A stretch of DNA of 54,539 nucleotides, from NCBI GenBank assembly GCA_964515785.1, contig CAZEWH010000006.1:4182-58720 (forward strand). The letters run 5' to 3'. Positions 18,294 through 21,924 of this stretch are shown here, one piece after another; position 1 is the first letter of the stretch, and every line of letters begins with the position of its first letter. Under the pieces are notes generated by a model. That model ran no database searches. It was not told where the DNA came from and saw nothing but the letters and a program-made list of their open reading frames with translations. This DNA comes from an uncultured Gammaproteobacteria bacterium. Its GTDB lineage: Bacteria; Patescibacteriota; Patescibacteriia; UBA1558; GWA2-36-10. Position numbers and translations under genes: made by a program.

Positions 18294-18971
18294 CTATATA
18301 TATTTTTCTACTTTTTTACAAACCTCTTGATGAATATCTTCAATGCTACGCAATTGATTATTAGCATCTATACACTCAATAGTTTCCCAATTATATTTTT
18401 TGGATACATAGATGCCAGCATTTTCAGCATCTTTGAGATGCTCTAAGTCGTTTTCGTGTATATCGTTTTTGGATTTAAGATTACCGTGGCGTTGTTCTTT
18501 TTTTAGAGACAATTGTTGAGAAATATCAGCTGGTATATGCAAGAAAAAAACAACATCGGGCTTGGGGATAGCAAAAATATTATATTCCAAATCTTCTAGC
18601 CATTCCAAAAACTTGTCTCGCTCTACCTGATCCTGAATTTTACCAGCTTGATGGAGCATATTGGAAGTAGTATAGCGGTTAGCTAAAACAATCTTACCCT
18701 CTGCCAACCATTTTTTCATATCAAAAGAAGCATCATAACGATCAGCAGCATAAAAAATAGAGGCTCGATAAGGTCCGACTTCTTTGGCTGTACCATAATT
18801 TCCGTTTAGATATTCTTCCACCAAAGCAGCAGATGGCTTGCCATACTGTGGAAAATCAGCCAACTCGAGTTGATGTCCGTCTTTAGTCAATTTTTCTTTA
18901 AGTAAATTAAACTGCGTGGTTTTTCCAGAACCATCTCCACCTTCTATTACAATAAATTTGCCTTTAGGCAT
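18294..18971 (-). CDS. tmk: Thymidylate kinase
   Basis: FIVIEGGDGSGKTTQ, YAADR, ANRYTTSN..HQ, PKPDVVFFL. Confidence 0.88.
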   Translation of the reverse strand: MPKGKFIVIEGGDGSGKTTQFNLLKEKLTKDGHQLELADFPQYGKPSAALVEEYLNGNYGTAKEVGPYRASIFYAADRYDASFDMKKWLAEGKIVLANRYTTSNMLHQAGKIQDQVERDKFLEWLEDLEYNIFAIPKPDVVFFLHIPADISQQLSLKKEQRHGNLKSKNDIHENDLEHLKDAENAGIYVSKKYNWETIECIDANNQLRSIEDIHQEVCKKVEKYI

Positions 18972-18983
18972 ATATTTTTATAT

Positions 18984-19409
18984 TTAATAGCCTGAACTGC
19001 CAAAACTGCCAGCTCCTCGTTTAGTTTTATCTAACTCCTCTACTTCTTGCCATTCTATATCTTCTACTTTTTGAATAAGTAGTTGCGCAATACGATCACC
19101 TATTTTAATTTTATAATCCTCTTGCCCAAAATTAATAAGTACTATTTTATAGTCTCCCCTGTAATGCGAATCGACTACACCAGCCATAGTATGAATACCA
19201 TGCTTGATAGCTAGTCCAGAACGATCACGAATATTAGCAAAATAACCAGCTGGCACAGCAATTTGTAAACCAGTATTTACTAAAGCTCGTTCACCTGGCT
19301 TTATCACAACCTCTTCACAAGCGTGTAGATCTACGGCTGCATCACCTTCGCCATAAGCAGTGGCTGGAATAGTTGCTTGCGGATGATTTTTTTTAATCTT
19401 GAGTTTCAT
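18984..19409 (-). CDS. dut: Trimeric dUTPase
   Basis: Motifs AAVDL, RSGLA, GVVDSHYRG, GDRIAQL, RGAGSFGSSG. Confidence 0.93.
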   Translation of the reverse strand: MKLKIKKNHPQATIPATAYGEGDAAVDLHACEEVVIKPGERALVNTGLQIAVPAGYFANIRDRSGLAIKHGIHTMAGVVDSHYRGDYKIVLINFGQEDYKIKIGDRIAQLLIQKVEDIEWQEVEELDKTKRGAGSFGSSGY

Positions 19410-19893
19410 TAGGTTTTACTAATTCTAGGTATTTAAATTTAAGATCATTATACTCATGCTCTTCTTCAGATAAAATTTTGGAAAACTCTGTATATTCTGG
19501 AAAAAAAGTATCAGCTTCAAAAGTTTTGTCTATCAAAGTCAAATATAATTTATCTGCATATTTTATACTCTGCGCATAGATAGAGGCTCCACCAATAAAA
19601 AATATTTCATCGTCGTCAGAAGCTTTGGCATATTCTAAAGCTTCTTCTATAGAGTATTTGATCACGCAGCCTTCAGCTTTAAAATTTTTATCTTGAGTCA
19701 GCACAACATTTATTCTATTGGGAAGTGGTCTACCGATGGATTCAAAAGTAGTCTGACCCATGATAACCATATGGCCAGAAGTAATATTTTTGAAATGCTG
19801 CAAATCAGGCGGCAAATGGACTAGCAATTTATTTTTATATCCAATCCCGCGGTCGCGAGCTATAGCACAAATTATACTAATAGTTTTTTTCAT
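19393..19893 (-). CDS. folA: Dihydrofolate reductase
   Basis: IG..NKL...LPPDLQHFK, IMGQTTFESIGRPLPNR, IGGASIY, ADTFFP. Confidence 0.95.
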   Translation of the reverse strand: MKKTISIICAIARDRGIGYKNKLLVHLPPDLQHFKNITSGHMVIMGQTTFESIGRPLPNRINVVLTQDKNFKAEGCVIKYSIEEALEYAKASDDDEIFFIGGASIYAQSIKYADKLYLTLIDKTFEADTFFPEYTEFSKILSEEEHEYNDLKFKYLELVKPNETQD

Positions 19894-19895
19894 AT

Positions 19896-20807
19896 CTAAA
19901 CAGCTATCGGAGCTTTGATGCCCGGATGCGGATCATAATTTTCTAAAATAAAATCTTCAAACTTAAAATCATTGATATCTTTGATATCTGGATTAATCTT
20001 CATAGTTGGTAAAGCTCGAGGTGTACGAGCTAATTGTCTGTCTACTTGTTCTAGATGATTTTTATAAATATGGACATTACCAAAGGAAACAATAAATTCT
20101 CCTGACTTCAAACCAGTCACTTGAGCCAACATCATGGTCAATAATGAATAAGAAGCAATATCAAAGGGTACCCCCAAAAATACATCAGCACTACGCTGAT
20201 AAAGATGACAAGATAATTTGCCATCATGGATATAAAACTGAAAAAATGATGGACAAGGTGGCGGAGCTGTACGCTTGCCTTTGATCAAAGTCTGTAGTTC
20301 ACCGGTATTCCAAGCAGACACAATAATGCGGCGAGAAGTTGGATTATTCTTTATCTGATCAATTACAATCGCAATTTGATCAATCTCTCCTCCACCTGGA
20401 CCAAGCCAACGACGCCATTGTTTGCCATAGACTGGACCAAGTTCACCCCAATTTCTAGCAAAATCTGCATTGTCTTTTATTTTGTCTATAAACTCATCTT
20501 GGGATAAAAATTTCTTTTCGCCACGAGATTCCATGACTTCTTTATAAACAGCATAAGGCCAATCATCCCAAATATGAACATTATTTTGAACCAACCAGCG
20601 AATATTTGTCTCACCTCTTAGCATCCATAATAAATCATAAATAGCTCCTTTTAAGAAAACTTTCTTAGTGGTCACTAAAGGAAATTTTTCAGAAATATCA
20701 AAACGGAGCTGGCCACCAAAATAACTACGTGTACCTACTCCAGTACGGTCATCGCCATCATTACCTTCGTCTCTAATTTTTTTTAGTAAATCAAGATATT
20801 GTTTCAT
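19896..20807 (-). CDS. thyA: Thymidylate synthase (ThyA) homologue with altered pyrimidine pocket; candidate dCMP methyltransferase
   Basis: [22 protein letters not shown](185), QRSAD, HIY, C-terminal IAV; but D58, P186, D216 replace E58, H147, N177 (E. coli numbering). Confidence 0.9.
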
Positions 20808-20808
20808 C

Positions 20809-21354
20809 TTATTCTACTAGTTTATCTAATTGTTTATACAAATCTTCTAGACTGCCGTTGTTATCTATAGTCACATCAGCTTGCTTTAATAATTCTGGAA
20901 TATAAACCTCAGTTTCCAATTTATGATCAGCTTGAAACTGCTCCCATGTTTTACTAATATCATCAGCATTTTCTCCTCGTTTTTTTAAACGTTCAAAACG
21001 TATTTTACTATCTACTTCAACGCCAATCAACTGAAAACCTTCAATTTTTTTCAAAGCTTCTAAATCATAACTTCTCCTAACACCGTCAATAACTACTAAT
21101 TCACTTTCAGACTTGGCTGCATCATTGGCAATGACTTTAGAAAAAAGATTTTGCCCAAAAGCTTCTCGTAAAACTAAAGATATCTCTGCCATATTTTTTC
21201 GAGACTGTTCCAAATACAGCCTATCTAAAACATCCCTCATGGAAGTAGAAAAACGAAAAGATACAGCCTTGTGTTTCTCTATAAAATATTTGGCAGCTGT
21301 ACCCTTACCACTAGCAATCAAACCAGTAAAAGCTAAAATCTTTTTATTTGGCAT
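20809..21354 (-). CDS. P-loop nucleoside monophosphate kinase-like protein (dephospho-CoA kinase/dNMP kinase-like)
   Basis: [37 protein letters not shown]. Confidence 0.75.
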
Positions 21355-21838
21355 CGTTGTCTGTAATCACAAATTTTTTGGTAGGAGTGTACTTTTTGTA
21401 TTTGACTTGAGCCAAATCAAAAAGTTTTTTGGCAGCTACAGAATATTCTTCATTGATATACTTGTCATCAAAATAATAGACTTCTTTGATACCAGCTTGA
21501 ATAATAGTCTTGGCACATTCGTTGCAAGGGAATAAAGTACAATAAACTTTACCGCCTTTGACTGATTTGTTGGAGTTGTAGATAGCATTACGCTCAGCGT
21601 GGACTGTATAAGGATATTTGGTATAAGTCCAATCATCGGTTTCTTTGCCCCAAGGCAAATCATCAGTTTCTATTCCTCGTGGAAAACCATTGTAGCCCAA
21701 TCCCAAAATAACGTTGTTTTCATCGACTACCACTGCTCCAGTGCGGGTAGAAGGCTCTTTTGATCTTTCGGATATCAAAAAGGCCATCAGCATAAAGGTA
21801 TCGTTCCATGATAAAAAATCTTTTCTTGGTCCTGACAT
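21344..21838 (-). CDS. dCMP deaminase; probable start ATG 21838
   Basis: Zn motifs HAERNA and PCNECAK, GYNG, RSKEP..TGAVVV; ORF extension to 21919 overlaps the promoter. Confidence 0.92.
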   Translation of the reverse strand: MSGPRKDFLSWNDTFMLMAFLISERSKEPSTRTGAVVVDENNVILGLGYNGFPRGIETDDLPWGKETDDWTYTKYPYTVHAERNAIYNSNKSVKGGKVYCTLFPCNECAKTIIQAGIKEVYYFDDKYINEEYSVAAKKLFDLAQVKYKKYTPTKKFVITDNDAK

Positions 21839-21863
21839 ATTTTTATAGGTTAAAAGTATGTAT

Positions 21864-21892
21864 ATTTTATCATAAGCTAAGTGCAAAGGCAA
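21864..21892 (-). promoter_or_regulatory. Promoter of the deoxypyrimidine operon
   Basis: TTGCCT (21892-87), 17 nt, TAAAAT (21869-64) with extended TG. Confidence 0.55.
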
Positions 21893-21895
21893 ACC

Positions 21896-21924
21896 AAAAA
21901 AATCAACCCGACGGGTCAATTTTT
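21896..21924 (-). terminator. Terminator after YgjP-like gene
   Basis: Minus strand AATTGACCC-GTC-GGGTTGATT followed by U tract. Confidence 0.55.

Follow-up and report, generated by a model that had tools for sequence, protein, structure and literature searches.

The window analyzed here is a stretch of 54,539 nucleotides (nt) of contig CAZEWH010000006.1, part of a genome (G000) of 957,869 bases in 27 contigs that is 98.4% complete. Between positions 18294 and 21940, it carries six open reading frames (ORFs) on the (−) strand that Pfam and NCBIfam assign, in transcription order, to a deoxycytidine monophosphate (dCMP) deaminase, a P-loop kinase, a ThyA-like enzyme, a dihydrofolate reductase (DHFR; folA), a dUTPase (dut), and a deoxythymidine monophosphate (dTMP) kinase (tmk). 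The subject of this study is the third of them, a member of the thymidylate synthase (ThyA) family that we predict, from its residues and its relatives, to be a reductive dCMP C5-methyltransferase. Specifically, the first gene encodes a DCTD-type (eukaryote-like) deaminase (165 amino acids [aa]; 21344 to 21838; PF00383, E = 1.6e-22; DCTD chain 2w4l), and the kinase gene (20809 to 21354) overlaps it by 11 nt, its product resembling deoxynucleoside monophosphate (dNMP) kinases (PHROG_139, Pfam AAA_18/AAA_17/DNMK, PDB 3lw7/3h0k). The ThyA-family enzyme (303 aa; 19896 to 20807; PF00303, E = 3.5e-110; TIGR03284, 411.7 bits) is followed by a FolA-type DHFR gene (19393 to 19893; PF00186, E = 2.9e-52) that begins 2 nt past its stop codon, and the gene of a trimeric-type dUTPase (18984 to 19409; PF00692, E = 3.2e-32) overlaps folA by 17 nt. 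The last gene, tmk (18294 to 18971), scores well above the Pfam cut-off (PF02223, E = 3.4e-23; 82.7 bits against 27) and slightly below that of TIGR00041 (80.3 bits against 83.25). The successive junctions thus measure −11, +1, +2, −17, and +12 nt, and gatB lies downstream of tmk on the same strand after a gap of 73 nt.

The 99 nt that separate an upstream YgjP-like gene from the ATG of the deaminase gene contain a terminator-like hairpin (21898 to 21924, (−) strand; 12-pair stem, 3-nt loop, T-rich tail), which lies immediately past the YgjP-like stop codon, and a promoter-like site (21864 to 21892, (−) strand) that reads TTGCCT-17-TAAAAT, carries a preceding TG (extended −10), and has 9 of 12 matches. 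The deaminase ORF had been listed from a TTG at 21919, inside the hairpin; alignment of its homologues moves the start to the ATG at 21838. As a class, promoter-like matches are not above shuffled sequence (30 found against 23.3 ± 5.1); the call at 21864 to 21892 is nevertheless reasonable because all six of the genomes compared have an aligned TGnTAAAAT-like element 5′ of the deaminase gene. Together, the ORFs, families, junctions, and upstream scan confirm what the initial annotation of this DNA had described, namely six tightly packed genes behind a hairpin and a promoter-like site.

That annotation had also called two replacements in ThyA, Asn to Asp and His to Pro, and both hold in alignments to E. 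coli ThyA chains, whose numbering is used throughout: the change from PCH to PCP is H147P (codon CCA, 20250 to 20252) and that from PFN to PFD is N177D (codon GAT, 20160 to 20162). At both sites, the protein departs from the dUMP-specific ThyA (EC 2.1.1.45; dUMP, deoxyuridine monophosphate), in which Asn177 selects uracil and His147 adjoins the catalytic Cys. A third co-varying change, Q162H, was absent from the earlier description, as were E58D and D205N (see below); an active-site Gln may orient Asn177 in ThyA. An assembly or sequencing error behind the substitutions was ruled out, as codons 147, 162, and 177 are covered by contigs of three runs from two studies (X3, X6, and X7, of a type labeled marine or seawater metagenomes; the study of X3 is possibly the source of the window assembly) with zero differing letters. 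One contig each in X3 and X7 skips 423 nt within the ThyA-like gene (window 20363 to 20787), with a shorter side of 22 letters, and probably represents another organism or an assembly artefact. Public sources label the variant ThyA proteins plainly as "thymidylate synthase."

The combination of Pro147 and Asp177 recurs among relatives, the closest of which are named Parcubacteria or Patescibacteria by their sources. We found it in nine of 120 listed homologues of the window's ThyA (P0001 to P0009, 71–90% identical to it), those from P0010 (71% identical) onward being canonical; in 4 of the 30 ThyA loci retrieved from the order (G000, G017, G039, and G045); and in five rows (four distinct sequences) among 171 ThyA ORFs from collected loci. 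One variant ORF, L163 (genome G086), is 57% identical to the window's enzyme and lacks its insert of ~35 residues; here, 8 of 120 listed homologues share the combination, as do 2 of the 30 loci of its family (G086 and G130). Twice, variant and canonical species occur within one genus (g2, with G017 and G016; g18, with G045 and G044). The window's protein is 55–70% identical to canonical enzymes.

To place these sequences, rows were classed by their alignment columns, and a tree of 74 rows was built from the alignment minus its four trait columns. On it, the variants fall into two clades, one of 10 and one of 9 rows (Shimodaira-Hasegawa-like approximate likelihood ratio test support of 96 and 97), each nested among canonical rows, and the trait needs a minimum of two state changes on this tree. 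A single variant clade is rejected by the approximately unbiased test (p = 0.0005; the constraint costs 106.9 log-likelihood units), the group for this test having been defined through the trait once an earlier tree was available for inspection. In a strict scan, only columns 147, 162, and 177 differ between each of the two clades and its canonical sisters, with a relaxed scan adding positions 62, 132, and, less cleanly, 149. Positions 147 and 177 are fixed in the variants (10 of 10 and 9 of 9 rows), and canonical rows hold His147 and Asn177 in 45 of 45 cases and Gln162 in 44 of 45. One sequence near the second variant clade, P0134, combines His147, His162, and Asn177 and is possibly an intermediate or an independent case of Q162H.

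Further analysis of the 19 variant rows revealed that the residues of ThyA chemistry are kept: R21, W80, W83, Y94, R126, R127, C146, R166, S167, D169, H207, and Y209 are conserved in all of them, H207 and Y209 being binders of the 3′-OH. The departures are E58D and D205N (window 20634 to 20636 and 20076 to 20078), which occur in only 2 of the 19 variant rows (the window's enzyme and P0001, its nearest relative) at positions that are invariant in 45 of 45 canonical rows, and Q165E, which occurs in two other rows. Since the triad shifted in two clades while these residues were kept, the pattern argues for an adaptive change of specificity rather than decay. The equivalent of L143 is Pro, as in canonical kin, and the acidic residue of T4 gp42-type enzymes is lacking there. 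Pro at this position, the D169 kept in 19 of 19 rows, and the DHFR gene 2 nt downstream together lead us to predict reductive methylation of dCMP.

Published work bears directly on these positions. N177D has been described as switching ThyA from dUMP to dCMP, with 5-methyl-dCMP as the product, and positions 177 and 147 were the top two in separating phage enzymes on cytosine-modified contigs from others (PMC8670742). The laboratory mutants concerned, N177D in E. coli and N229D in Lactobacillus casei, are reported as dCMP methylases (PMC8670742, PMC13326640) and share the Asn-to-Asp change with the window's enzyme; unlike them, enzymes of the window's type are natural, have two extra co-varying changes (147 and 162), and have become fixed by selection in two lineages. 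An acidic residue at L143 has been tied to hydroxymethylation and D169N to 5-hydroxylation (PMC13326640), and the ThyA family also holds hydroxymethylases and the cytidine monophosphate (CMP) enzyme MilA (PMC5175136, PMC13326640). T4 gp42, a dCMP hydroxymethylase, has Asp at the equivalent of 177 and dCMP as its substrate (PMC13326640), which agrees with our prediction; T4-like enzymes, however, have an acidic L143 equivalent and leave the methylene unreduced, whereas the window's enzyme has Pro there and a coupled DHFR.

The closest functional parallel is the deoxycytidylate C5-methyltransferase of Xanthomonas phage Xp12, a thymidylate synthase homologue that served as a positive control for the formation of 5-methyl-dCMP (10.1101/2024.12.05.627091). 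Its pairwise alignment reads PCP and PYD, i.e., Pro147 and Asp177, and the enzyme shares with the window's protein the ThyA fold and neighboring genes for a dCMP deaminase and a DHFR. The two proteins are 26% identical, and an independent origin from a cellular ThyA is therefore indicated. Unlike the Xp12 enzyme, the one in the window is encoded on a chromosome, in synteny with canonical kin, and no other thymidylate synthase was found in the genome; the main purpose in Xp12 is DNA containing 5-methylcytosine (5mC), and the deaminase characterized in the same preprint uses a triphosphate. Xp12 was not among the matches of a tblastn search spread against phages, and the tree places the window's ThyA among cellular ThyAs. 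A phage or prophage origin of the gene was rejected, as its flanks are syntenic with those of kin and the best of 10 relatives on viral contigs, found by query-derived peptide patterns that can miss relatives, is 45% identical. A survey of the full-text literature, in which subscription journals are little covered, returned phage work and citations of the mutants and no cellular methylate-first route to thymidylate.

Next, we consider whether the genome has another source of thymidylate. It gave one ThyA match and none to ThyX, thymidine kinase, or cytidylate kinase (Cmk); the search for a second thyA or thyX proposed in the initial annotation has thus been run and found none in this nearly complete assembly. 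ThyX was likewise without a match in 4 of 4 variant genomes of the family and in G086. A ribonucleotide reductase is present, and an ordinary C5 DNA methyltransferase is encoded. Two possible bypasses were rejected: the other gene of the CDA fold is not a second dCMP deaminase but a TadA-like domain joined to a part that resembles a methyltransferase, and a weak match to a second dUTPase falls in a frame that looks RNase-Y-like by eye. The former is a 422-aa ORF (L002; 85 to 1353 of the 1.4-kb contig C22), with a TadA/CDA-like domain and a C-terminal part labeled methyltransferase-like by eye. Uracil-DNA glycosylase (UDG; PF03167) is matched in 1 of 39 genomes of the family, with none in G000, compared with 13 of 14 control genomes; its near-absence holds whatever the ThyA type, and its loss was discarded as a specific correlate. 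Within this family (f1), ThyA (24 of 39 genomes) and ThyX (14 of 39) are nearly complementary, both being matched only in G043, where the ThyA match is weak (38% identical), and neither being found in G025 and G027.

The surroundings of ThyA were mapped in 12 relatives, 9 of which have the canonical His147 and Asn177. The order recurs with small variations: UPF0029, YgjP-like, deaminase, kinase, ThyA, DHFR, dUTPase, Tmk, and GatB. Among the nine canonical loci, the kinase adjoins ThyA in eight and a deaminase is present in seven, with DHFR, dUTPase, and Tmk present where the contig extends; the exceptions are G019 and G032 (a short contig), in which no deaminase is seen, and G085, in which the kinase is not. 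In the second family, that of L163 and G086, the set consists of deaminase, ThyA, a RibD_C-like reductase, kinase, and a Tmk-dUTPase fusion, and it is common to the canonical kin (28 of 30 loci). The operon is, therefore, the family's ordinary, ancestral "dCMP to dTDP" set, which in canonical kin reads naturally as dCMP to dUMP to dTMP to deoxythymidine diphosphate (dTDP), with folate recycling and dUTP sanitation alongside. As this gene order also accompanies canonical ThyA, neither the deaminase nor the kinase is peculiar to this genome, and the make-up of the operon was rejected as evidence that the route is reversed. The argument from six-gene content in the initial annotation consequently fails.

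The same comparison disposes of the suggestion that an "extra" kinase channels 5-methyl-dCMP to 5-methyl-dCTP (deoxycytidine triphosphate [dCTP]): the kinase accompanies canonical ThyA in both families and is therefore ancestral, not a sign of 5-methyl-dCTP synthesis. Its matches comprise the "deoxynucleoside monophosphate kinase" family PHROG_139 (E = 7.4e-22, residues 1–180), Pfam DNMK over residues 5–63 only, and the archaeal UPF0200 (AdkA-like) structures 3lw7/3h0k (E = 4e-12), and the nearest Atlas clusters bear automatic names of the dephospho-CoA kinase family. The absence of Cmk was discarded as proof that the operon kinase is a dCMP kinase, as 26 of 39 family genomes have divergent Cmk-like matches besides the operon kinase. 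A dUTPase that also hydrolyzes dCTP is likewise unsupported, the protein scoring as an ordinary dUTPase (157 bits on TIGR00576 against 102.55).

Individual positions in the operon vary among relatives. The deaminase position is occupied by a dCMP deaminase of one of two types, DCTD-like or ComEB-like (~30% mutual identity; L037–L048, L250–L279), and that of Tmk holds one of two types (~28–30% against 48–71% identity to the window's protein), which looks like in-place replacement by distant homologues with the rest of the operon unmoved. In the variant genome G039, six tandem paralogous ORFs of 169–195 aa with an "LPDDLIV.G" motif lie between the variant ThyA gene and folA (L038, 8913 to 12206), and in the same operon dut and tmk are separated by a match to thymidine kinase. 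A single 414-aa ORF of G086 (L163, 7902 to 9146) encodes Tmk and dUTPase as a fusion, and the place of FolA is taken by a 174-aa ORF (L163, 6806 to 7330) that is 35% identical to FolA over 52 residues and RibD_C-like by eye.

The partner of the ThyA-like enzyme would be the deaminase, which matches human DCTD over residues 5–163 (chain 2w4l, E = 4.6e-48) at about half identity and carries the zinc motifs HAERNAI (HAE) and PCNEC (PCxxC) and the allosteric motif GYNG. The latter agrees with the definition G(Y/W)N(A/G), and DCTD is described as active on 5-methyl-dCMP (PMC12088426). A deaminase adjoins the variant ThyA in 6 of 6 variant genomes (G000, G017, G039, and G086, as well as G045, where it is partial at a contig end, and G130, where it is split over two contig ends). 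The three to four variant-linked deaminases of the window's family share E28, T78, R83, Y132, and S133, of which T78 and R83 flank the catalytic HAE; none of these residues occurs in the 19 further DCTD-type deaminases compared from the order. The two deaminases linked to the variant ThyA in the second lineage have lost a Tyr that 19 of 19 others retain. Co-evolution of the deaminase with the PFD-type ThyA, which the initial annotation had proposed to look for, thus has clade-specific residues in its favor; with two lineages, each one clade, it is a lead rather than evidence.

Taken together, these results suggest that dCMP to 5-methyl-dCMP to dTMP is the cell's housekeeping and sole de novo route to thymidylate, to which we would assign a probability of about 0.55 from the sequences compared here. 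In this scheme, dCMP would be supplied by dCDP or dCTP that the reductase makes or by DNA salvage, and H147P, Q162H, and N177D would have retuned the lineage's ThyA from dUMP to dCMP. The ThyA-like enzyme would methylate dCMP reductively with methylene-tetrahydrofolate to 5-methyl-dCMP, DHFR would recycle the dihydrofolate to tetrahydrofolate, the DCTD-like deaminase would convert 5-methyl-dCMP to dTMP, and Tmk would phosphorylate dTMP to dTDP; dUTPase would keep its sanitizing role, and the operon would be transcribed from the conserved extended −10 promoter. The gene content, the substitutions and their double origin, the lack of a match to any other thymidylate synthase, and the likeness to the Xp12 enzyme at 147 and 177 are observed; we infer that the substrate has switched, that a methyl rather than a hydroxymethyl group is added, and that deamination takes place on the monophosphate. 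Like canonical ThyA (E. coli, L. casei), the window's enzyme has the residues that bind folate and the nucleotide phosphate and is surrounded by the pathway genes for dCMP deaminase, ThyA, DHFR, and Tmk; unlike it, it has Pro147, His162, and Asp177 for His, Gln, and Asn and a predicted dCMP substrate, so that the deaminase would act after methylation instead of before. The methylate-first model of the initial annotation thus keeps the sole ThyA, the twice-arisen triad, the match to Xp12 at 147 and 177, and the DCTD-like deaminase as its supports and loses its operon argument.

Several points weigh against this scheme. The evidence on N177D comes from E. coli and L. casei mutants through citing papers (PMC8670742, PMC13326640), and five of the seven Asp177 phage enzymes assayed gave 5-methyl-dCMP (10.1101/2024.12.05.627091). 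Natural enzymes of the Asp177 clades may retain useful activity on dUMP, and E58D and D205N, which alter catalytic-site positions that are otherwise invariant, could mean lower or altered activity in the window's enzyme. The phage deaminase characterized in detail, mSCD-B5, acts on the triphosphate 5-methyl-dCTP and not on 5-methyl-dCMP, and the thymidine nucleotides of the phages are proposed to come from deaminated methylated cytosine nucleotides at the triphosphate level (10.1101/2024.12.05.627091), and deamination here may likewise occur at another level than the monophosphate. The deaminase could also turn dCMP into dUMP, which would be of no obvious use, and its residues hint at co-adaptation with the variant ThyA in two lineages only. 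As for salvage, a second dNK/Tmk-like P-loop ORF on contig C4 of the genome may leave the use of thymidine possible, and another variant genome, G039, has a thymidine kinase. The group to which the organism belongs is generally regarded as host-dependent, and uptake of dTMP from a host, conceivable in such an organism, may also contribute.

An alternative that we hold to be rather unlikely is that the enzyme methylates dUMP or both dUMP and dCMP, the triad only broadening or shifting its specificity while the canonical path from dCMP through dUMP to dTMP persists. An operon of the same make-up as in canonical kin, including a dUTPase as a source of dUMP, would suit such an enzyme, as would its 71% identity to canonical relatives, the complete set of residues for folate-dependent methyl transfer, and the two of seven Asp177 phage enzymes without 5-methyl-dCMP in the assay (10.1101/2024.12.05.627091). 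However, the triad, including the specificity-marking positions 147 and 177, changed together twice, and 147 and 177 were then fixed, a pattern difficult to account for if the substrate had stayed the same; moreover, Pro147 and Asp177 are shared with the Xp12 dCMP methylase, whereas 45 of 45 canonical rows have His147 and Asn177.

Quite improbable, in our view, is a cellular version of the Xp12 scheme, in which 5-methyl-dCMP would be phosphorylated, perhaps by the operon kinase, 5mC would replace much or all of the cytosine in the chromosome, and part of the pool would be deaminated, possibly as 5-methyl-dCTP, yielding thymidine nucleotides; such a scheme does not exclude methylation before deamination as the route to dTMP. 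An Asp177 ThyA homologue with a deaminase and a DHFR matches the Xp12 cluster, the kinase matches a phage dNMP kinase family, mSCD-B5 uses 5-methyl-dCTP (10.1101/2024.12.05.627091), and the invariant Tyr lost from the second-lineage deaminases could mean a changed form of substrate. Yet the kinase is ancestral and stands beside canonical ThyA, the deaminase shares about half of its residues with human DCTD, which acts on monophosphates, and the genome's ordinary C5 DNA methyltransferase would be redundant if all cytosine were 5mC. That the chromosomes carry motif-independent 5mC in place of cytosine, alongside dTMP made via 5-methyl-dCMP, is very improbable; outside phages such as Xp12, no such replacement is known so far. 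Finally, the idea that the enzyme has another product or substrate (5-hydroxymethyl-dCMP, or CMP serving a pathway to RNA or small molecules) or is nearly inactive in a cell that uses host thymidylate is very improbable, for while E58D and D205N, the presumed host dependence of the group, and the hydroxymethylases and MilA within the ThyA family speak for it, the L143 equivalent is not acidic, D169, H207, and Y209 are kept, DHFR is translationally coupled, no thymidine kinase was found for salvaged thymidine, and the 19 variant rows, at least 57% identical to the window's enzyme (L163 being the lowest), show long-term purifying selection.

To our knowledge, textbooks let cellular de novo dTMP synthesis always proceed via dUMP, by ThyA or ThyX, and a methylate-first route to thymidylate has so far been proposed only for phages. 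What is surprising here is that a housekeeping ThyA has twice gained the phage-like dCMP signature, with no other thymidylate synthase found, within an operon that is ordinary. If dCMP methylation does precede deamination in these cells, it would constitute a third cellular way to thymidylate and a natural, replicated substrate switch in one of the best-studied enzymes, and it would call for caution in the automatic annotation of "thymidylate synthase." The order of methylation and deamination would then have been reversed at least twice in free-living or host-attached ultrasmall bacteria, with the operon left as it was and just three residues replaced in an enzyme already present, and no dUMP pool would be built from dCMP in a family in which UDG is matched in 1 of 39 genomes.

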